From Candidatus Zhuqueibacterota bacterium (GTDB lineage: Bacteria; BS750m-G25): 64,000 nt of DNA. The DNA lies in assembly GCA_016783505.1 (NCBI GenBank), contig JADHWK010000005.1, forward strand, positions 1,764-65,763, read 5' to 3'. Under the pieces are notes generated by a model that was not told where the DNA came from, did no database searches, and saw only the letters and a list, made by a program, of their open reading frames with translations. Below, in pieces: positions 3,460 to 64,000 of this stretch (the stretch's first letter is position 1; each line of letters begins with the position of its first letter). A program made the position numbers and the translations under genes.

Positions 3460-4572
3460 ATGATAAAAATTGATTCCCAAGATGTGAGAAAATATGATCC
3501 CTCAGACATGCTGGGGCTGATCTTGAACTTTCCCGATCAGATTGAAGAGGCTGTCGCTATTGGGGAGGGTATTCAAACGGATCCGCACCCGGAGGGGCTT
3601 CAGCACCTTGTAATCTGCGGCATGGGGGGGTCGGCCATCGGGGGGGATCTGTTACGAACCTATCTGTCCCGGGAAATATCCCTTCCCATCTTAGTGAATC
3701 GGCACTACACCCTGCCTAGATTTGTCGGTCCTAATTCTTTGGTCATTGTGTCCAGTTATTCGGGTAACACCGAGGAGGCCCTGGCCTCCTTTCAGGAAGC
3801 TAGGGTTAGAAAGGCGCATGTAGTCTGCCTGACCAGTGGGGGGAGACTTAAGGGATGGGCCCGAGAAGAAGGTTTCCCCGTGATCCAAATTCCGGGAGGA
3901 TACCCCCCTCGGGCGGCTCTGGGTTTTTCTTTTTTTCCCGTTCTCATCCTTTTAATAAAAACAGGATTGGTTAAGAGACGTTCCCAGGATTTCCAAGAAG
4001 TTATCACTTTGCTTCGAAAAAAAAGCCGACTCTATCATCCGGATAAGAACGAAGGGAATCTGGCAAAGCAGCTGGCCGGGGAGCTTAAAGGCCGGTTTGC
4101 CTTAATCTACGCCTCACCCCCCACCGAGGCGGTGGCGATGCGATGGAAGGGGCAGTTTTCCGAGAACAGCAAGCTCTTGGCCGGTGTAAATCTTTTTCCT
4201 GAACTCAACCATAATGAAATCGTAGGCTTTAGGCCAAAGCCCGCCGGGCCCATCAGGGTGATTTTCCTGAAGGACAGCGGGGATCACTCCCGAATTAAAG
4301 CCCGGATGGACATTACTAAGGCCATCATTGAGGAAAGCGGGGCCAGGGTTTTGGAGGTCCATTCGGAGGGAAAGTCCCTGTTGGCCCGGTTGTTCTCATT
4401 GATCTATCTGGGGGATTTCGTCTCCCTGTATCTTGCCGTGTTGAACAAGGTGGACCCGACGCCGGTTAAAAATATTGACTTTCTAAAATCTGAATTGGCG
4501 AAAATCCCGGGATCCTTTAGAATGGCAACAGTTCAGCCACAAAGACACGAAGACACCAAGATTATAGAGTAA
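3460..4572 (+). CDS. Bifunctional phosphoglucose/phosphomannose isomerase (SIS domain, archaeal-type PGI/PMI)
   Basis: The 370-aa ORF carries VICGMGGSAIGGDL and VIVSSYSGNTEE SIS motifs. It starts 11 nt after ptsI. Its C-terminal about 15 aa are encoded by a 34-nt repeat also found at 52569. Confidence 0.65.
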   Translation: MIKIDSQDVRKYDPSDMLGLILNFPDQIEEAVAIGEGIQTDPHPEGLQHLVICGMGGSAIGGDLLRTYLSREISLPILVNRHYTLPRFVGPNSLVIVSSYSGNTEEALASFQEARVRKAHVVCLTSGGRLKGWAREEGFPVIQIPGGYPPRAALGFSFFPVLILLIKTGLVKRRSQDFQEVITLLRKKSRLYHPDKNEGNLAKQLAGELKGRFALIYASPPTEAVAMRWKGQFSENSKLLAGVNLFPELNHNEIVGFRPKPAGPIRVIFLKDSGDHSRIKARMDITKAIIEESGARVLEVHSEGKSLLARLFSLIYLGDFVSLYLAVLNKVDPTPVKNIDFLKSELAKIPGSFRMATVQPQRHEDTKIIE

Positions 4573-9423: not shown

Positions 9424-9519
9424 TGTGAAGTGTGAAGTTCGAAGTGAGAAGTGTAAAAATTACTGTCACTTAAAAAAAATATAACTTCGCACTCCGCATC
9501 TTAGCTCACTTCACACTTG
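9424..9519. repeat. GAAGTG hexamer array (tGAAGTGtGAAGTtcGAAGTGaGAAGTG) with distal complementary arm CTCACTTCACACTTG
   Basis: Seen directly. A second array of the same family is at 28889..28930. Both begin less than 15 nt after a plus-strand stop codon. Confidence 0.6.
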
Positions 9520-9549
9520 TTTGGGATAATACGAGCATTTTCCCTGTTC

Positions 9550-9719: not shown

Positions 9720-9775
9720 GGATAGGAATCAATTCCTATCCTAATCTTTATGAAGTAATCCCGATAAATCGGGAT
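9720..9775. repeat. Composite element: GGATAGGAATcaATTCCTATCC palindrome followed by ATCCCGAtaaaTCGGGAT hairpin and a T-run
   Basis: Seen directly. The same two-part arrangement recurs at 16174..16240. Confidence 0.6.
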
Positions 9776-10156
9776 GGGGTGTTTTGTCCAATCTAATTTA
9801 TCAGTCGGGAGCCTGACCGATTGGATTTCTAAAGAGAAGTTTAAGATGGTAATTGATTGCCATCCGATTGAAAAGACAACCACTATTAGTTTGAACTAAC
9901 ATCCGAAATAAAACGGATTTATGTTCTTTGGGCAGGTGTCCGACTGAGGTGTCATGAGTTTTTAATTTACCGGCAACCGTTATAGATATAGTTGATTTAT
10001 TGCCATTCCTGCCTCGCAAAAAGGGTCATTCCTGTCCCGCATCAAGTGCGGGATAAACTTCAGCAGGAATCCAAAACAAAGAAGAAAATGGATTCCTCCC
10101 GACAGGCCGTGACGGGAATGGCAGGCATGCAGATACTTTTTAAAATAGGCTCCGTT

Positions 10157-12217
10157 ATGAAAAAGACAATCAGAAATATGGCCTTGTTTTTCACTGGAAT
10201 CATTGGTCTTATTCTTTTGTATTCTTGTACACCCAAAGCCCCGCAAGCTCCCAAATGGGAGACCAGCTATACCCTTTCCTTAGGCGGTAGGCTTTACAAA
10301 ATGTCCGAGATCATTGATAATACCAATATCATTGATTCTACCTATAATGATGACATCCGCCTCCTCACCTTTCTCTTTGATCAGGAAATTGAGCCCTTTG
10401 AACTGGAGGAGAATTTTAACCTCGAGGATGTAGTGATTTCTTACAACTTTGGGATGGATGAGATATCCATCGAAACGCCAGGATCTATTAGGATGCCTTA
10501 CCTTCCATCACCGGTTTACCCCCCGCAATACACCTTTCCCTATACAGGAGTTGTAGATAGTCAAATGATTATAGATACCCTTTTTAATTTAAGTCCCCTT
10601 GAACGAGTTAATAAATTAGTCGTTACGAACGGGTATATTGATTTTCAGATAGATAATAATTTAAGTTTTTCTCTTAGTAGCGACTCTATTGATTCTTTAA
10701 AATATAAGATCATATTAATAGAAACCACCAATGGACAACTTATAGATTCTGTCATTTTTGATGAAATTGATCCCGATAATTCTGCTTTAGTGAGGATGGA
10801 TCTGGCGGGGGATACCCTTTATCACCAGATGGCCTTTAAAATTATGGGAGGAACAGAAGGATCTAAGGGGCAGATTATGACTATTCCGGGCTTGGAATAT
10901 TATACCTTGTCAATAGAATTTTCCCCCCAGTTTACCTCGGACTGGGCCGAGATGAGACCGCCCCCCATGTCGTTTTCCCAGCGCACCAGTCTAGACATTC
11001 AAGAAGCTGGAGAAATAGAAATACAATCCATAGATACGTGTAAAGTTGACTCGGGGTTGGTGATCATTACGGTGGAGAATAATATGAACTTGGAAGCGGA
11101 GTTGTTATTGACTTTCCCTGAGATTTATGTTGATAGTATAACTTGGTCAGTTAAGATGGACACTATTATAATGGCACCCAAAGAAACTGTGATTGATAGT
11201 GTTAATCTCAACAACCATTTCATGACACCTACTAATGGAAGGTTATTAAGCTTCCTTGTGGATGGAACCACCCAGGAGCTGCCCCCGGACAGTTTTGTTG
11301 TAGTAACCAATACGGATTCCATCAATATTGAGGTAAGGATTAAAGTTCTGATCTTCGAATGGGTCACCGGTGTTCTGGACCGCACCGAGATAGAGATTCC
11401 CTCCACCGCCCAAGGGTTCGAGGTCTTTCCCGAGGAGCTGGAGAACATTGAACTGGGAAAGGTCTATCTTCAACTGGCATTGGATAATACCATAGAGCGG
11501 ATACCCATGGAGTTGGGCTTTACAGTACAGGCCTTCCGAACCGGGGGAGACACGGCCCAGGTGGAGGTCAACAAGACGATCACAGGGGATGACACCCTCA
11601 GTGTCCCCAACGCCGAGGTCCTGATCAATGTACTTCCGGACTCGGTAAAGATCATCAACGGTCAAGCCTACATCGGCAATGGGTTGATCCGGGGCACGAT
11701 TTATGTGGGGAACTCCATGACGGGAACCATGTCCGTCATCGCCCCCTTCATCTTTAAGATGGGTCCCTCCGAACTTCCCATTGAGCCCCCCACCAAGGTG
11801 TCCAAACTGGGGGAGATGGTGGAGTCCTTAAGCATTACCGGAAGGGTGGAAAACCGGATCCCCATAGGGGGGAAGATCTATGTGCTCTTCAGTGAGAACG
11901 AAAGCTTTCTGAAGGATACGGTAGTTGTTGATTCGGTAGATACCCTTATGACCATCACCCTGCCCATGCCTATAATAGGTCCCGACAGCTTAACACAAAC
12001 AGCCAGCGTTGATACATCCATAGAGTTGACCCCCGAAGAATTTGCCCGCTTTCAAGAGCAGGACAATTACATTAAACAGATCATCGCCCTGGAAGGCACT
12101 GTTATCCGGGATTCCGTGACGGGAGTCCCCATAGATACGGTGATGGTAAAGGTCCAGAGCAGCGACTACCTGGCAGCTTATCTGACGGCCCGGGTGACGG
12201 TTAAATACGATTTCTGA
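10157..12217 (+). CDS. Large secreted lipoprotein, function unknown (686 aa)
   Basis: Signal peptide MKKTIRNMALFFTGIIGLILLYSC with lipobox Cys. The body is beta-rich. Its stop lies 4 nt before the downstream barrel gene. The ORF-track start at 9992 is probably too far upstream. Confidence 0.55.
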   Translation: MKKTIRNMALFFTGIIGLILLYSCTPKAPQAPKWETSYTLSLGGRLYKMSEIIDNTNIIDSTYNDDIRLLTFLFDQEIEPFELEENFNLEDVVISYNFGMDEISIETPGSIRMPYLPSPVYPPQYTFPYTGVVDSQMIIDTLFNLSPLERVNKLVVTNGYIDFQIDNNLSFSLSSDSIDSLKYKIILIETTNGQLIDSVIFDEIDPDNSALVRMDLAGDTLYHQMAFKIMGGTEGSKGQIMTIPGLEYYTLSIEFSPQFTSDWAEMRPPPMSFSQRTSLDIQEAGEIEIQSIDTCKVDSGLVIITVENNMNLEAELLLTFPEIYVDSITWSVKMDTIIMAPKETVIDSVNLNNHFMTPTNGRLLSFLVDGTTQELPPDSFVVVTNTDSINIEVRIKVLIFEWVTGVLDRTEIEIPSTAQGFEVFPEELENIELGKVYLQLALDNTIERIPMELGFTVQAFRTGGDTAQVEVNKTITGDDTLSVPNAEVLINVLPDSVKIINGQAYIGNGLIRGTIYVGNSMTGTMSVIAPFIFKMGPSELPIEPPTKVSKLGEMVESLSITGRVENRIPIGGKIYVLFSENESFLKDTVVVDSVDTLMTITLPMPIIGPDSLTQTASVDTSIELTPEEFARFQEQDNYIKQIIALEGTVIRDSVTGVPIDTVMVKVQSSDYLAAYLTARVTVKYDF

Positions 12218-12221
12218 TTTT

Positions 12222-13472
12222 ATGAAGACGAAGAGATTCCTGACCATTCAATTTATTTTAATCCTTCTTTACCCCGCAGGTTCTTTAGCTTATCTGGGTT
12301 TAAGCGGAAGGGCAATCGGCCTGGCGGGAAGCTACATCGCCATGGCCCGGGGTGCCGATGCCCCTCGCTGGAACCCGGCCAACCTGGGCCTTTCCGATAA
12401 TCCCGAGTATAGCTATAAATTCCTATCGTTTGGACTATATCTTGGAAACAACTCATTTTCCACTTCGCTATATAACTCATATTTTACTACTGGGGATTCG
12501 TTGACGTACCAGGACAAGCTTGACATTATGGATAATATCAGTAAGGATGGTTTGATCCTCAACCTAAATACCCGCCTAGACATTTTTAATTTTTCGGCGG
12601 GACGGTTTGCCTTTTCACTGAGCGGGGTTGAGGCGTTCAAATTATCTTTTGCCAAAGAATATTTAAGCATTGCCCTTCTGGGAAACGTGCCGGAGCGGGA
12701 CTATCGCTTTGAGACCACCGGCGGGGCGGGCTGGACCGGGCTTCAGGCCACCTTCTCCTACGCCTGGCCGCTAAGACTGCGGCTTTTCCGGGAATTTGCG
12801 GTAGGGGGGAACTTAAGCTATTTTCGGGGATTCTATTACGCTGATGCCATGGATACTAAGGGCCATTTTATTGTGCTTCCTGACTCATCCATCTTTAATA
12901 CCGAGGTGAATCTTTACACAGCAACCGGTGGAGATGGGATTTCGGTAGATCTAGGGATGGCTGGTGTGGTTAATGACCGCTGGGCGGTGGGACTTGTCCT
13001 CTTTAATGTTTTTGGTAGGGTGATCTGGGATAGTAACGTCCGAAAAATTGAGGAAGTTGTCTTTTTGAATACTAATCTTGCCAGGCCGCTGGAGGACATA
13101 TACGGTCTGGAAGAATCCTCAAGGAAGATTTCATATACCACCTCCAAGTTCCCGGTTCTGTTACGGGCCGGAGTCAGGTATGTGGCTTCTGAGACCACGG
13201 TTATCGCTGGAGACATTGAGGAGGGGTTTTCCACCCTGCCCGGAGTCACCTACATCCCCCGGTTCTCGTGCGGGGTGGACTACCAGTGGCAGTCCTGGCT
13301 TCCCCTGCGGGTAGGGGGATCTATCGGTGGATTGGAGGGATTTGAATTAGCTTTTGGCTTTGGGCTGAAGCTGCCCCGTTTTGTCTTCGATTTCGGCATC
13401 GCCGGGATTGGGGGGGTGGGCAACGGAGCCCAGGGGATCAAATTGGGAATAGATCTGGTGAGTTCAATGTAA
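12222..13472 (+). CDS. FadL-like / PorV-PorQ-like outer-membrane beta-barrel protein
   Basis: Signal peptide, then GLSGRAIGLAGSYIAMARGADAPRWNPANLGL (N-terminal G.G.R..G.GGA..A..D..A..WNPA.L motif, shared with ORFs at 32805 and 34078). Alternating amphipathic strands run to the C-terminus. Confidence 0.45.
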   Translation: MKTKRFLTIQFILILLYPAGSLAYLGLSGRAIGLAGSYIAMARGADAPRWNPANLGLSDNPEYSYKFLSFGLYLGNNSFSTSLYNSYFTTGDSLTYQDKLDIMDNISKDGLILNLNTRLDIFNFSAGRFAFSLSGVEAFKLSFAKEYLSIALLGNVPERDYRFETTGGAGWTGLQATFSYAWPLRLRLFREFAVGGNLSYFRGFYYADAMDTKGHFIVLPDSSIFNTEVNLYTATGGDGISVDLGMAGVVNDRWAVGLVLFNVFGRVIWDSNVRKIEEVVFLNTNLARPLEDIYGLEESSRKISYTTSKFPVLLRAGVRYVASETTVIAGDIEEGFSTLPGVTYIPRFSCGVDYQWQSWLPLRVGGSIGGLEGFELAFGFGLKLPRFVFDFGIAGIGGVGNGAQGIKLGIDLVSSM

Positions 13473-13483
13473 ATATCTATCCC

Positions 13484-13612
13484 AAAGCTACCGGTGGATG
13501 TTGCCCTACGGGCGGGTCATCCGCCGGAATCAAAACCCTGCTCCAAATGGTCATTGCCTACCCCCAAGTTATGTCGGGAAAGACAGCTTCCCCGACAAGC
13601 CGAGTTTAGGGT
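13484..13612. repeat. Structured direct repeat, copy A (about 125 nt, two hairpins)
   Basis: Copy A shares CCGGYGGATG..CATCCGCCGG hairpin 1, the CCCTGCTC..ATGGTCATTGCCTACCCCC..AGTT core and GTCGGGRAAGACARCTTCCCCGAC hairpin 2 with copy B at 14709. Stem mismatches in A are wobble or compensated in B. Confidence 0.7.
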
Positions 13613-13644
13613 ATTAAAAAAAGATAAGTGGGGGATGTATTAAG

Positions 13645-14673
13645 ATGAAGAGGTTAATCGTAATCGCCATCGTTTCTTTGGCCAGTATCTTCCTGTTATT
13701 ATCTATTTTATTTGGCCAAAAGGAAAAGCAGGTTGTATCAGCAGACCAACTAAAAATTGTAGCTATGAACAAATTAAGTAATATTCCTCTCCGTGCGAAG
13801 TTATTTGATTTAGAAAATTGGGCTTCTGAAGAAAGTGAAGGTAGATTTAAAGAAAAACTGATTGTAAAAACCAGTACAGATAATCAAAGCAAATGTATTC
13901 ATACAGATGATGGAATCTATAATTTACGATGGTCGCCTGACGGCAAGAAACTGGCGTTTTGCAGTCGAAACCGACAAAGCAGATTATATGGCTTATATAT
14001 ATACGATGCCGAAAAAAAGGATCTGTCAGAGATTATTCTGAAAGATGTTGGTTTTGTATTCGGTTCTTGGTCCCCGGATGGCAAAAAAATAGTCTATCGA
14101 CAAGGTTCACACATAAGTGAGTTTAAAATATTTATCTGCAATTATGATGGTTCGGACGAAAAATTTCTTACCGAAGGCTATAATCCTGTTTGGTCTCCCT
14201 CCGGGAAATACATTGCTTTTGTTAAACCTAGTTCCATAACACTGCCTTATCGTAGCTGGGAGGACCGCATTTGGATAATCAGACCGGATGGAACAGGTAA
14301 GAAACGGTTAGAGGGACCGAAAGGGCAAACGGAGCTTATCTGGTCACCGACTGATGATATATTGATTTGTGGATATTCTGGTCTCTATAATCTAAATCAA
14401 GATAGATATTATAAGTTTGATATACCGGGTGATGATTTTGCCTGGTCTCCTGATGGGAGCAAGATAATTTTTGAAGTTCCCGAATTAGCTGACGTTCAAG
14501 AGGGAGTGTTATCGGATATTGATTTATGGATAATGAATTCCGACGGCAGCGGTCTTCATAATTTAACATACAGTGATGGCATCTACGAATCAAATCCACA
14601 GTTTGTTTCTAATAATGAAATAGTGGCTATCGTAGGTGGTAAATTGACATTAATTAAACTCGGAATGAAATAA
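13645..14673 (+). CDS. PD40/TolB-like beta-propeller repeat protein with N-terminal membrane anchor
   Basis: Five WSPDG-type repeats (RWSPDGKKLAF, SWSPDGKKIVY, VWSPSGKYIAF, IWSPTDD, AWSPDGSKIIF). GC content is markedly lower than the flanks. Confidence 0.65.
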   Translation: MKRLIVIAIVSLASIFLLLSILFGQKEKQVVSADQLKIVAMNKLSNIPLRAKLFDLENWASEESEGRFKEKLIVKTSTDNQSKCIHTDDGIYNLRWSPDGKKLAFCSRNRQSRLYGLYIYDAEKKDLSEIILKDVGFVFGSWSPDGKKIVYRQGSHISEFKIFICNYDGSDEKFLTEGYNPVWSPSGKYIAFVKPSSITLPYRSWEDRIWIIRPDGTGKKRLEGPKGQTELIWSPTDDILICGYSGLYNLNQDRYYKFDIPGDDFAWSPDGSKIIFEVPELADVQEGVLSDIDLWIMNSDGSGLHNLTYSDGIYESNPQFVSNNEIVAIVGGKLTLIKLGMK

Positions 14674-14708
14674 AAATTGGGGGGATAAAATAAGTAATAA
14701 ATAATTTT

Positions 14709-14833
14709 CAAAGCTCCCGGCGGATGTTGTCATCCGCCGGCATTTAATTCCCTGCTCTCGATGGTCATTGCCTACCCCCCCAGTTTTGTCGGGGAAGACA
14801 ACTTCCCCGACGAGCTAAGGCTGATGGGTTTAA
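14709..14833. repeat. Structured direct repeat, copy B
   Basis: See copy A. Both stems are perfect here (CCGGCGGATG ttgt CATCCGCCGG; GTCGGGGAAG acaa CTTCCCCGAC). Confidence 0.7.
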
Positions 14834-14899
14834 TAAAGTGAGGAAGAGAATTTCGGGGAGATAATTTGTGTAGCCACACCAGCAAGGGTGTTTATTTAA

Positions 14900-14940
14900 T
14901 TCAAAAGGCGGTAGGGTAAAATCCTTTCCGCCTTTCTTAG
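14900..14940 (-). terminator. Terminator candidate for the lptF/G-family gene (minus strand); possibly bidirectional
   Basis: AAAGGCGG ... CCGCCTTT stem with a 16-nt loop. On the minus strand it is followed by TTTTGAATT. Confidence 0.4.
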
Positions 14941-16173: not shown

Positions 16174-16281
16174 CATAGGAATAAATTCCTATGCTAACTC
16201 TAAGAAAGTATGTTGAAATATACTGTAATCAGTCCCGAAGTTTCGGGACTTTCTTTGAGATAGCGTGATAATTTATTATCA
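16174..16281. repeat. Intergenic palindrome cluster: CATAGGAATaaATTCCTATG (16174-16193), AGTCCCGAAgtTTCGGGACT (16221-16240), TGATAATttATTATCA (16266-16281)
   Basis: Seen directly. The third element resembles a Fur-type 7-N-7 box with 2-nt spacing instead of 1. Confidence 0.55.
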
Positions 16282-28875: not shown

Positions 28876-28888
28876 GATTATTCTAACC

Positions 28889-28930
28889 AAGTGTGAAGTG
28901 AATTAAAGTGCGAAGTTAGAAGTGCAAAAA
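28889..28930. repeat. GAAGTG hexamer array, second copy
   Basis: GTGTGAAGTGaattaaagtgcGAAGTtaGAAGTGcaaaaa starts 14 nt after the stop of the BNR protein. Compare 9424. Confidence 0.5.
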
Positions 28931-44432: not shown

Positions 44433-44716
44433 CCGTTGGAAGTTGAAAAGCAGCAGGGGGACAGAGGGGCTGGGGAGCAGAGGAGAAAAAAATCGTATCC
44501 TCAATAGGTATCATCGTGAATCCGTCTAACAATATGGAATTACCCCGAAACTTCGGGGTTTATCATAAACCCGTCCATACGGATCCGTCTGGATAAACGG
44601 ATAACTCCGGTTGTTTTTATTGCGTTTTGAATTTCGGTCATTTGTCGTGCCTGAGGCAGATCCGCCTTGGGCGGAAATTTGTTTCGGATTTCGTGTTTCG
44701 GATTTTATCTTGTAAT

Positions 44717-46418: not shown

Positions 46419-46613
46419 ATGAACTTTTAGCTATGCTCCTTTTAGATTCTGCGGGTCATCTGCCATTATTTTTAATTTGACAGGATTGATTGTTTTTATT
46501 CTTGTGCCGACTCGTCGGCATGATGGTTTAGTTAGTAAATAAAATTAAATGATCTAACAATATAAAACTAGAATTTTTGAGAATTTTACTAATCAGCTGA
46601 GAGAGTCTCCATT

Positions 46614-47099
46614 ATGTACCCAATAAATGAAATTGAAATTGCTGCAAATGAATTTGTTGAGTTACGGCGAAAAGTACATCATGAGATAGCTAAAAAGTTA
46701 GATCAAGGATCATTCGAAAATGGAACTACTTTAATCTATAAAGGAAATTTTATGCGTATAGAATTAACTATCAAGGATGATACCCAAAAGAGTACACTTC
46801 ATAGCTATGGGACTTTATCGCCGAATGCGCGTTACTTTCTAAAGGCCTTTGCCAAGGGAATTTCAACACCTTTCAGACTTGAGATAGACAATAAATGGAA
46901 TACTCCTCATATTAACAGTTGTTGTTCACAAGATAACCATCGATCCATTCCGAATTGGGGAACAAGCAACATTAGTTCTATTGGATCGACTGTTACCGGT
47001 GTTGTTCTTGGTGATTGTTTGGTATTTGATTTAATGAAGCGTCATTTGAAATACGGCGGTTTTGGAACAACAACGGATTGTACCCTACACCATAGTTAA
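46614..47099 (+). CDS. Hypothetical protein in AT-rich islet (161 aa), no recognisable domain
   Basis: ORF only. Low GC (about 35%) against about 52% flanks. Cys-containing C-terminal half. Confidence 0.3.
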   Translation: MYPINEIEIAANEFVELRRKVHHEIAKKLDQGSFENGTTLIYKGNFMRIELTIKDDTQKSTLHSYGTLSPNARYFLKAFAKGISTPFRLEIDNKWNTPHINSCCSQDNHRSIPNWGTSNISSIGSTVTGVVLGDCLVFDLMKRHLKYGGFGTTTDCTLHHS

Positions 47100-47116
47100 G
47101 GATATAGGTAATCTGA

Positions 47117-47496
47117 TGGCAAGAAGACGTACATGTGGTGAGGAATTGGTTGAGCAAACGACAAGTGCTTGCGGAAGAGAATGTAGTAAAAGTTGCTCTA
47201 AAGGATGTATTGTCTCCTTTGTACCAATTTTGCTTTCAAATCTGAGGTTGTTCTTATACAGTATCGTAAACTTTTCATCGCTCAAAAGCGTGCTTATTGA
47301 AATGATTCATCATTATCAAACAGATGTTTCTCCTTACCTAAATACTTGCTGTCTATTTGAACCTTCATGCTCAAACTACGCAATCCAAACATTTCGGAAT
47401 CATGGTTTATTGATGGCATTACTGAAAGTGTCCTTTCGTATTGTGAGGTGCAACGCAATGGTTGCCCATTTCTTTCAGTTAACGATTTATAGTTAG
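47117..47496 (+). CDS. YidD-like (haemolytic-domain, membrane protein insertion efficiency factor family) protein with Cys-rich N-terminal extension
   Basis: IEMIHHYQTDVSPYLNTCCLFEPSCSNYAIQTFRNHGLLMALLKVSFRIVRCN matches the YidD core (YQ..SP.....CRF.PSCS.YA..A....G...G..L...RI.RC.P). It is preceded by a 60-aa extension with 7 Cys. Low GC. Confidence 0.5.
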
Positions 47497-47756
47497 CCTA
47501 GAATTTTTACTTCAAATAATTAGGAAGTCTTAAGCTGTACCGAATTATTTACCATAAGTTGAAGAAGTTGAAGGAAATTCCATAGGAATTATTAAAATGT
47601 GTATTTTTCAGTGCAAGTAATGGATCATAATATGGACTGCATTTCTATAAGGTTTGTTTGGAATACTGTCAGCTTCTTTAGGCAATTAACTAACACGCCT
47701 GACCCGAATAGTGTGACTGTATGATCAAGCTTTTTTAATAACTTATTACCTAAAAA

Positions 47757-51995: not shown

Positions 51996-52565
51996 ATGGT
52001 TGAAACCAGCGAAAAAGAGCTGATCAAAAGATGCCAGCGGGGCGATCAAAAGGCGTTCGCAGAGCTGGTTGACCGTTACAAAGTATGGGTGTTCACTATT
52101 ATTGACCGCATGATTTACGACGAAAGCCAAACCGAGGATTTAGCTCAGGAGGTATTTATAAGGATATTTAAGGGGATCGCCGATTTCCGGGGGAAGGCCA
52201 AGCTCTCTACCTGGATTTACCGGATTACCTACAATATATGTTTAACCGAGATCGCCCGGAAAGGAAGGGAGAAGGAGTGGATTTCCCTAGACGAAGAGAA
52301 TCCTTTGGGAGGTCAGTCTTTGGGAGAGATACTTCCGGGTGGTGAGGACTTCATCCGAGACCATGATATTAAAGATACCGTAGAGGTACTGTTAAAAGAG
52401 TTATCCCCCCGTTATCGAATGGTCATTACACTTTATTATTTAAGGGAAATGTCATACCAGGAGATCGGGGAGGTGATGGATCTGCCCCTTGGTACGGTGA
52501 AGGCCCAGCTTCATCGGGCCAAAAAGTTCATGCGGCGGGTTTTACTGAGTGAAGATATAAGGTAA
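51996..52565 (+). CDS. ECF-type RNA polymerase sigma-70 family factor
   Basis: Region 2 (DLAQEVFIRIFKGIADFRG) and region 4 (LYYLREMSYQEIGEVMDLPLGTVKAQLHRA) are present. Confidence 0.8.
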   Translation: MVETSEKELIKRCQRGDQKAFAELVDRYKVWVFTIIDRMIYDESQTEDLAQEVFIRIFKGIADFRGKAKLSTWIYRITYNICLTEIARKGREKEWISLDEENPLGGQSLGEILPGGEDFIRDHDIKDTVEVLLKELSPRYRMVITLYYLREMSYQEIGEVMDLPLGTVKAQLHRAKKFMRRVLLSEDIR

Positions 52566-52717
52566 CTATTCAGCCACAAAGACACTAAGACACCAAGATT
52601 ATTATGAGGCTAGCTACTGGAGACCGAAGACCGAAAAAAATAGAATAAACATCTATCCTCTTACTTCGTAATTCATAATTCTTAATTCTACATTATTTTT
52701 CGTGCCTTGGCGCCTTA

Positions 52718-59391: not shown

Positions 59392-59697
59392 ATTTAATCC
59401 CCTCTTATGAACTTAAGGGCTACGCCCCAACTGGAATAATGGGCAATAAATATATCTGGAGATCAGGGTATCAGTGGGAAGAATATCAGTGGATCAGAAC
59501 ATTCGGAACGATCTTGGGACAGGATAAAATCTGATATTCTTGTAATCTGATTCCCTTCCTATCCCCAAGCTTCGGGACTGATATTCTGATTTACTTTGAA
59601 GCCCTTTCTTAGAGATTCAAAGATGTTAAGTTACCATCCGCAATCATGAAGTCATGCCTGAGGCAGATCCGCCTATGGCGTGACCTGCGGCTACATC

Positions 59698-63392: not shown

Positions 63393-64000
63393 TCAGGGTG
63401 AAACATCTGGCCATTCATGCTTAGGATAGAACTGGTAATTAAGAAAACATTGGTTGATAACCGCATTAGGCCATCTACTTTTAATAACCATTCTTTTCTT
63501 CTTTATTATTTTAGAGAGATCATTATACTTCGAAAAATCGGTATATTTTTCCCAGCTTCCAGAAAACTTCTTCGGCCAGGATTTTGCTAAGGGATGGTCA
63601 GGCATCCTTGTAGTGACTTTATGTCTATCATATCTCGTCCTCATATCTTTTATCCGAGCCACTTCTTCTATATGAGCATATTTTACCGAAATTTTTTCCA
63701 AAGGAATGTTCTCCCACCCAACCGGCAAGGAGCCATGGCCTCCCCATTGAACATTGATCCTTGCCCTCTGATTATGAGCATTGGCATCTTCTATGGCTTC
63801 TTTTGTAGCCAGAATCGCTCGATGAAAGTAAGTATACACCCCTTTCACTTTACCTGATTGGGGATCGTATTCAATCCAGACTTTCTCGTGATCAGTGGGA
63901 TCATTATCCCCGGGATAGTCAATATCATCATCCCAGAAGAAACTATATTCGATAAGCGGTTTATCGGGATGAATAACCACCGTCAAATCTTCCAAGGGGA
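63393..64000 (-). CDS. Hypothetical protein, 5' end runs off the window
   Basis: ORF only. There is no in-window ATG start, and the frame stays open to position 64000. Confidence 0.3.
   Translation of the reverse strand, partial: PLEDLTVVIHPDKPLIEYSFFWDDDIDYPGDNDPTDHEKVWIEYDPQSGKVKGVYTYFHRAILATKEAIEDANAHNQRARINVQWGGHGSLPVGWENIPLEKISVKYAHIEEVARIKDMRTRYDRHKVTTRMPDHPLAKSWPKKFSGSWEKYTDFSKYNDLSKIIKKKRMVIKSRWPNAVINQCFLNYQFYPKHEWPDVSP

Follow-up and report, generated by a model that had tools for sequence, protein, structure and literature searches.

A probable REP/BIME-like family of paired-hairpin repeats around a low-GC PD40 gene in an uncultured KSB1 bacterium

Repetitive extragenic palindromes (REPs) are palindromes of 20-40 nt that occur as inverse pairs with linkers, the REP/iREP units being conserved and the linkers highly variable (PMC3333891). 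Among the bacterial interspersed mosaic elements (BIMEs), BIME-1 consists of one Y and one Z1 unit, measures about 140 bp and is exclusively intergenic (PMC1187871), and BIMEs are regarded, together with the hairpin-forming doublets of REPs known as REPINs, as mobile DNA that is non-autonomous (PMC3116915). Here we describe a repeat made of paired hairpins in a 64-kb stretch of DNA from Candidatus Zhuqueibacterota bacterium BS750m-G25 (contig JADHWK010000005.1, positions 1,764 to 65,763, forward strand), called the window below, in which two copies of the repeat, A and B, bracket a gene of low GC content that encodes a PD40/beta-propeller protein. The repeat probably represents a lineage-specific REP/BIME-like intergenic family of this uncultured KSB1 bacterium, with the bracketing of the PD40 gene as a by-product of rearrangement, and it is filed with the REP/BIME kind because its doublet architecture matches published descriptions of BIMEs. 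To our knowledge, no REP/BIME-type repeats have been recorded in candidate division KSB1 or its neighbours, a point for which the literature was not searched.

The DNA analysed comprises 83.2 kb of one 134.7-kb metagenomic contig and includes the window. Three covariance models were used: R1, built from A and B only; R2, built from three copies; and R3, which represents a single hairpin unit. The two copies, their units P1 and P2, and the bracketed gene are as follows.

13470..13623, + strand: copy A of the repeat (R2, 154.9 bits)
13491..13527, + strand: unit P1 of copy A, CCGGTGGATG / CATCCGCCGG (R3, 35.8 bits on the + strand and 14.7 on the - strand)
13573..13596, - strand: unit P2 of copy A, reading GTCGGGAAAG-ACAG-CTTCCCCGAC on the + strand (R3, 41.4 bits on the - strand and 14.3 on the + strand)
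13645..14673, + strand: PD40/beta-propeller gene, 342 aa with a hydrophobic N-terminus (Pfam E 8e-17)
14698..14838, + strand: copy B of the repeat (R2, 151.6 bits)
14717..14740, + strand: unit P1 of copy B, AGCTC-CCGGCGGATG-TTGT-CATCCGCCGG (R3, 47.7 bits on the + strand and 14.3 on the - strand)
14788..14811, - strand: unit P2 of copy B, with the reverse complement AGCTC-GTCGGGGAAG-TTGT-CTTCCCCGAC (R3, 49.2 bits on the - strand and 14.5 on the + strand)

The element consists of two 24-nt GC-rich palindromic units, P1 in forward and P2 in inverted orientation, with a spacer of about 45 nt between them. Each unit is made up of a GCT foot, a 10-bp stem and a 4-nt TTGT loop; the feet read AGCTC/GAGCT and the loops TTGT/ACAA, and the foot GCT, usually AGCT, is invariant. 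The conserved seed of the element is TGTCGGGGAAGACAACTTCCCCGACGAGC, and the unit can be written in degenerate form as GCTNNNNGNGNANGTTGTCNTNCNC. Copy A runs from a GCT foot through P1, the spacer and P2 to an AGC foot, its left edge overlapping the stop codon (13470-13472) of the upstream gene. Its P1 carries a 13-nt nested mini-hairpin within the TT^GT loop and one G·U stem pair, and its P2 one A·C mismatch on the + strand. Copy B has a spacer of the same type, both of its hairpins are perfect, and its P1 loop is 4 nt long.

As the preliminary description of this DNA had reported, two direct two-hairpin repeats lie on either side of the PD40 gene. Local alignment places their homology at 13470-13600 and 14698-14815, with weaker similarity as far as about 13623 and 14838; over the aligned columns the two copies, direct repeats on the + strand, are about 86% identical; two 1-nt indels separate them, and the apex of hairpin 1 of A is longer by 13 nucleotides. 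The four units listed above are the strong hairpins of the two copies, for which RNA folding of the + strand gave z-scores of -3.5 and -4.7. The hairpin motifs occur nowhere else in the window, where A and B are the only copies, and none of 100 shuffles yielded even one such pair.

The hairpins also coincide with breaks in Logan assemblies. Contigs from SRR12042682 and ERR13325269 break inside hairpin 1 of copy A (window 13493-13520), and at hairpin 2 of copy B (14787-14812) SRR12042682 breaks at the hairpin and ERR13325277 inside it (14793); neighbouring contigs overlap by 26-28 nt at these breaks, which is less than k-1. Candidate causes are read artefacts arising from the hairpins, loop variants and further copies in the genome.

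The covariance search for more copies that had been proposed earlier did reveal two on the same contig, neither of which brackets a gene. R1 identified copy C (match L022 4634-4780, 59.3 bits, E 3e-14), a complete copy (L022 4627-4785) located 17 kb from A, outside the window and about 3.4 kb upstream of its first position. Copy C lies 58 nt past the stop codon of a NUDIX gene, has no partner copy, and folds with -70 kcal/mol (z = -7.0). R2 identified unit D (match L031 22-63, 20.6 bits, E 0.003), the right half (L031 38-63) of a fourth copy within which the analysed DNA ends, located about 9.9 kb upstream of the window, 6 kb beyond C and 59 nt before an RtcA-like gene. D and B have the ACAA loop and the right flank AGCTGATG in common, and the spacer of D resembles that of C. 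Both C and D are solo copies beside ordinary housekeeping genes. All four copies are intergenic, and the three complete ones lie 11-58 nt past the stop codon of a co-oriented gene. Because R1 and R2 found C and D on the same contig, A, B, C and D form a repeat family, which is more than a single duplication.

Beyond these seven units, no copy or singlet unit was detected in the 83 kb in searches with R3 and the other models run with filters off. The element was likewise absent from the loci of two distant DUF5723 homologues and from that of the best full-length PD40 homologue. The 19-mer ATGGTCATTGCCTACCCCC, a spacer seed that A and B have in common and that is unconserved in C, matched genome and metagenome contigs only by chance over about 20 nt, apart from its own contig. 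Against viral contigs, a 17-mer gave chance matches only and the 24-mer of hairpin 2 gave 0 matches.

The orientation of the units is mirrored in the strand on which R3 scores them: P1 of A and B reaches 36-48 bits on the + strand and about 14 on the other, and P2 of A, B and C, together with D, reaches 41-49 bits on the - strand and 13-21 on the other. P1 of C gave only a partial R3 match (18.4 bits on the + strand) and has an apex of 34 nt, as compared with 17 nt in A and 4 nt in B, corresponding to loop insertions of 30, 13 and 0 nt; its stem persists, one pair having changed from C-G to U-A by compensation and another being G·U. The insertion sits exactly in the middle of the loop (TT^GT; window 13507-13519 in A, L022 4653-4682 in C), and its nested stem is GCCC/GGGC in A and CCCGCC/GGCGGG in C, both ending in GGCGG before the loop GT. 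P2 of B equals P2 of C, hairpin 2 and its flanks being identical over 29 nt. Between copies, 45 of 48, 42 of 48 and 45 of 48 stem columns are identical (88-94%), and the corresponding figures for unpaired columns are 57 of 84, 47 of 92 and 44 of 81 (51-68%); the spacer of C differs by about 50% from that of A and B, including the 19-mer that these two share.

Conservation of the secondary structure had previously been argued from stem changes said to co-vary, or to be wobble-compensated, between A and B. That argument did not hold: the stems of the two copies differ by one C->T change giving a G·U pair in hairpin 1 and by one G->A change giving the A·C mismatch in hairpin 2 of A, and no stem pair is altered on both sides. 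The conclusion itself stands on other evidence. Taken as one family, the six distinct units form standard pairs in 98.3% of cells, and 5 of the 10 stem pairs have changed on both sides (13 cells); none of 500 shuffles reached the observed covariation score, and slid controls pair at 29-63%. Because pairing has been held through change across the six units, the hairpins are selected as hairpins, on a count that assumes P1 and P2 to be homologous. This homology was deduced from the foot and loop that the two types share and from 8 stem positions that do not vary; of the 10 stem positions, 5 differ between P1 and P2. The ends of the element are joined only by GCT/AGC (3 bp), lengthened to 10 bp in copy C. 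Four G·U pairs form on the + strand only: one each in D and in P1 of A and of C, and one that closes P2 in B and C. On the - strand, one mismatch would become G·U. This bias is slightly in favour of a fold in the sense transcript or in the + strand of the DNA.

The bracketed PD40 gene has a GC content of 37.4% and a third-codon-position GC content (GC3) of 32.9%, against window means of 50.6% and 58.0% (GC3 z-score -2.7), and the low-GC segment (13624-14708, 1,085 bp) fits exactly between A and B. Its nearest non-self homologues are 22-40% identical, and the best full-length homologue, P0050, is encoded on a 37%-GC contig, without the element beside the gene. The low GC3, the 37%-GC contig of P0050 and the presence of other downstream genes in distant relatives indicate that the PD40 gene was probably acquired horizontally. 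It is not, as had been stated, the only clearly low-GC gene of the region, since the open reading frame (ORF) at 46614-47099 is lower still (GC 36.2%, GC3 27.8%) and 63393-63995 is also low in GC.

The first of these ORFs (161 aa, no Pfam match) belongs to a second low-GC island at 46419-47756, between lpxB and a DUF374 gene and without flanking repeats, where a further ORF, a small one at about 47117-47490, has a YidD-like motif (...YQTDVSPYLNTCCLFEPSCSNYA...RIVRCN). At the PD40 gene, two SPAdes contigs of assembly ERZ24794672 end inside the 5' part (13768-13822) with a 55-nt overlap, and NCBI contig JACKQG010080592.1 starts at 13730 and shows 3 mismatches to the window; these contig ends and mismatches may reflect strain heterogeneity.

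Since A and B have a common spacer type that C and D lack, they are sister copies, each other's closest relatives, as are tandem copies at one BIME locus. By analogy with BIME/REPIN elements, the units probably offer hairpins for recognition by a protein acting in trans that would spread or maintain them; in transcripts, as part of the 3' untranslated region (UTR) of the upstream gene, they may form stem-loop barriers and so stabilise or terminate the mRNA. For the PD40 segment, the most likely course is entry at or between local copies, or duplication of one copy during its insertion, and the bracket would then be a by-product of repeat-associated rearrangement that calls for no dedicated cassette system. 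By our own rough estimate, the chance that a low-GC gene is bracketed by coincidence is about 1%, so that some link between repeat and rearrangement is likely.

Several points weigh against the assignment to a REP/BIME-like family. Four copies were found in 83 kb, and classical REP/BIME families have hundreds, typically more than 100 per genome; no REP-associated tyrosine transposase (RAYT) or Y1 transposase is encoded among the genes of this DNA; and the foot is GCT, as opposed to the GTAG of enterobacterial and pseudomonad REPs. The role of the units in protein binding is putative. If P1 and P2 were not homologous, the covariation would fall to one pair within P1 and three between P2 and D. 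The suggested link between the repeat and the PD40 insertion comes from one locus, all assemblies with this locus carry the PD40 gene and are identical or 99.9% identical (L004), and the 14% difference between A and B implies that the event is not recent and that its mechanism cannot be reconstructed.

Correia-type miniature inverted-repeat transposable elements (MITEs) of Neisseria are non-coding repeats of about 100-160 nt with inverted termini that lie near genes and are often co-transcribed. Were the present element a non-autonomous transposon in the strict sense, either a MITE bounded by terminal inverted repeats or a derivative of IS200/IS605-type insertion sequences associated with palindromes, A and B would have inserted independently or by local hops, with the PD40 gene between them by coincidence. 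The inverted units with their AGCTC feet do amount to imperfect terminal inverted repeats of about 29 nt (19 of 29 identical), although these are self-complementary hairpins, and a 10-bp terminal helix closes copy C; the length of 130-160 nt is typical of MITEs, and the subterminal hairpins resemble IS200/IS605 ends, a likeness noted for REPs as well (PMC3333891). However, no target-site duplication is recognisable at any copy, the boundaries being AT-rich and poorly defined, the spacers of A/B and C/D differ by about 50% whereas a MITE burst usually leaves copies that are nearly identical, and neither a parent insertion sequence nor a transposase was seen in the 83 kb. We therefore consider a strict MITE unlikely, while recognising that it overlaps heavily with the REP/BIME reading. 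The preliminary description had offered, as a fallback, a MITE-like element that captured a gene; the MITE-like element of this proposal comes close to our conclusion.

It also seems improbable that the element is an immobile cis-acting or small RNA, for instance an sRNA or a module for 3'-UTR stabilisation, processing or termination. The complete copies all lie just downstream of co-oriented genes, as such an RNA might, but nearly all genes here are on the + strand, which makes co-orientation weak evidence. Four G·U pairs are viable on the + (sense) strand only, a T-rich stretch follows P1 of B, and a terminator scan flags this P1 as terminator-like; P1 of A and of C, on the other hand, have no U-tract, and the spacer is unconserved. 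Rfam returned 0 matches at gathering thresholds for the whole window, and the best sub-threshold match across L020 (the PD40 gene and parts of the flanking repeats, E <= 10) was isrP with 24.2 bits against a threshold of 45. Furthermore, conservation of the units extends beyond pairing to the sequence itself, a sign of a sequence-specific partner. A candidate for the end of the transcript lies between copy B and the convergent lptG-like gene.

14901..14936, strand not assigned: terminator-like hairpin AAAAGGCGG...CCGCCTTTCTT, as read from the sequence

The terminator scan does not list this hairpin, which would nevertheless seem a likelier transcript end than the repeat itself.

The architecture had also been likened to an integron cassette or another site-specific insertion. 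A reading in which the repeats are recombination sites of a gene-capture system, integron-like or an uncharacterised analogue, and the PD40 gene with one repeat is a mobile cassette that site-specific recombination placed at a resident repeat, now appears very unlikely. Direct repeats that are sister copies do bracket exactly one cassette-sized, compositionally foreign and apparently promoterless gene, the estimate of about 1% applies to two of four random copies flanking one of 2-3 low-GC genes, and P1 apices of 4, 17 and 34 nt are reminiscent of the variable terminal structure of attC. The R''/R' cores of attC (RYYYAAC/GTTRRRY), however, are absent from both strands of the three complete copies with their flanks, which bears out the earlier remark that no attC cores are evident. 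An attC site is one imperfect hairpin with extrahelical bases, a central spacer left unpaired and a variable terminal structure (PMC5027507), whereas the fold here consists of two independent, perfect or near-perfect, self-folding palindromes and a spacer. The window contains no integrase, as already noted, and no integrase, recombinase or transposase domain (Phage_integrase, RAYT and Y1 included) was found among the genes of the 83.2 kb, so that no tyrosine recombinase, for which a search elsewhere on the contig had been proposed, appeared in this part of it. A single gene is bracketed and there is no array; NUDIX and RtcA-like housekeeping genes are the neighbours of the solo copies C and D. 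The pattern named earlier as refuting a cassette, an element that occurs elsewhere with no tie to variable genes, is thus borne out in part, on the four copies seen so far. In addition, the PD40 homologue P0050 lacks the element, and A and B are 14% diverged. We give only an outside chance to the variant in which the paired hairpins are sites of a non-integron gene capture in KSB1 and a hairpin-binding enzyme acting in trans, for example an HUH or RAYT-like protein, recombines the copies. Under such capture, single foreign genes would be inserted beside or between elements at the 3' ends of operons and would be expressed by read-through.

That the repeat is a one-off local segmental duplication made at the PD40 insertion, with no family behind it, is scarcely tenable, for although A and B are adjacent, form the most similar pair and have no third copy in the window, C and D lie 17 and 23 kb away on the same contig. 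A peptide shared by the copies was rejected, in agreement with the preliminary description: besides the two 1-nt indels and the 13 extra nucleotides, the small ORFs of both strands are unconserved between copies (MVIAYPQVMSGK... versus MVIAYPPSFVGE... on the + strand; MTIWSRVLIPAD... versus MTIESRELNAGG* on the - strand). A 5' leader or riboswitch for the PD40 gene was rejected as well, as no gene follows copy B on its strand and Rfam gave nothing.

The repeats are embedded in a neighbourhood of ordinary chromosomal genes, which encode phosphotransferase system (PTS) components, S-adenosylmethionine (SAM) synthetase, S-adenosylhomocysteine (AdoHcy) hydrolase, LptF/LptG, SprA, LpxB, LpxK, ExbB/TonB, an extracytoplasmic function (ECF) sigma factor and pentose-phosphate enzymes. 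The gene whose stop codon is overlapped by copy A is the following.

12222..13472, + strand: upstream gene, 416 aa, homologue of the DUF5723 family, predicted outer-membrane protein (identified by its homologues)

The 416-aa protein is identical to one that NCBI assigns to a candidate division KSB1 bacterium. It has itself no Pfam match at E <= 0.01; PF18990 (DUF5723) is present in 81 of its 90 non-self homologues according to precomputed matches. Its closest DUF5723 homologues are 33-37% identical, and their loci (L027 and L028) have neither the PD40 gene nor the element. The comparison of orthologous loci that had been called for could be made to this extent, but at this identity the loci are too distant to date the insertion. 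Distant relatives in the Fibrobacteres-Chlorobi-Bacteroidetes (FCB) group keep a gene pair composed of an unknown protein of 520-740 aa and a DUF5723-family protein of about 420 aa (window 9992-13472; L027 2096-5358; L028 5446-8270), with other genes downstream in the relatives. In the two relatives the genes of the pair share 4 nt, and 4 nt separate them in the window, where the pair adjoins lptF/lptG and the type IX secretion gene sprA. A 155-nt difference between the window and NODE_146 near 1443-1497 was rejected as a polymorphism; it is a 100-N scaffold gap in NODE_146 with 55-nt duplicated ends absent from the window (L031 11422-11521), an assembly artefact that shifts contig coordinates by 155 nt.

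Other repeats of the region were recorded alongside. A 42-nt direct repeat (4524-4565 and 52561-52602, 90% identical; GGCAACAGTTCAGCCACAAAGACACGAAGACACCAAGATTAT) extends over the stop codons of two + strand genes that are unrelated to each other, and another family of 3'-end repeats may be represented by it. A 47-nt inverted repeat built of GTGAAGT/CGAAGT-type words (e.g. tgtgaagtgtgaagttcgaagtgagaagtg) links two intergenic regions (9484-9530 and 28877-28923, 79% complementary) and occurs also at 9424-9455, and a 30-nt repeat is present at 44644-44673 and 59651-59680 (90%). Intergenic hairpins of the type CCCGA(N)nTCGGG, e.g. ATCCCGATAAATCGGGAT and AGTCCCGAAGTTTCGGGACT, were observed at 9758-9775 and 16231-16250 and at L022 4879-4899 and 4954-4978, and may form a separate class of terminators or REP-like repeats.

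For annotation, the locus represents neither an integron nor a new class of RNA gene. It offers a concrete case of a probably horizontally acquired gene placed exactly between two sister copies of a repeat, and if the bracket pattern recurred across the genome, the repeats would be tied to gene gain. Two covariance models are ready for surveys of metagenome bins.

Compared with known systems, the element is similar to attC sites in being a structured repeat (57-141 nt for attC) located 3' of promoterless genes, with a variable apex and a plausible structure-based recognition. It differs by the absence of RYYYAAC/GTTRRRY cores, of a pattern of extrahelical bases and of IntI, attI and an array, by its two hairpins (PMC5027507), and by solo copies that adjoin housekeeping genes. 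With Correia elements it would share its size, the inverted termini and the location near genes; in contrast to MITEs, its internal sequence differs between spacer types and its termini are self-complementary hairpins. The REPINs of Pseudomonas fluorescens SBW25, which are linked to RAYT transposases, resemble it in the inverted doublet, the less conserved spacer, the extragenic position and the compensatory changes (PMC3116915). In REPINs, however, the REPs pair together in one long hairpin, whereas here each unit self-folds and the ends form a terminal helix of 3-10 bp; since pairing between its two units is absent, the element does not qualify as a strict REPIN. The differences from BIME-1 lie in the unit sequence, which is unrelated (foot GCT here, GTAG in enterobacteria), in the perfect or near-perfect stems, where E. 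coli REPs need a stem mismatch for binding by TnpA-REP, in the nested apical hairpin of variable length in P1, in the four copies seen in 83.2 kb, and in the host, an uncultured KSB1 bacterium in whose analysed DNA no RAYT or integration host factor (IHF) site was identified. Like BIME-1, the element combines two short GC-rich palindromic units, related but distinct, in inverse orientation with a longer linker, measures 130-160 nt as compared with about 140 bp, is strictly intergenic and typically found at the 3' ends of genes, has conserved units and varying linkers, and has copies from the same locus that are more alike than copies from other loci (PMC3333891, PMC1187871). An inverted-doublet design with an unrelated unit in a distant lineage provides a data point on the spread, convergence or antiquity of REP/BIME repeats.

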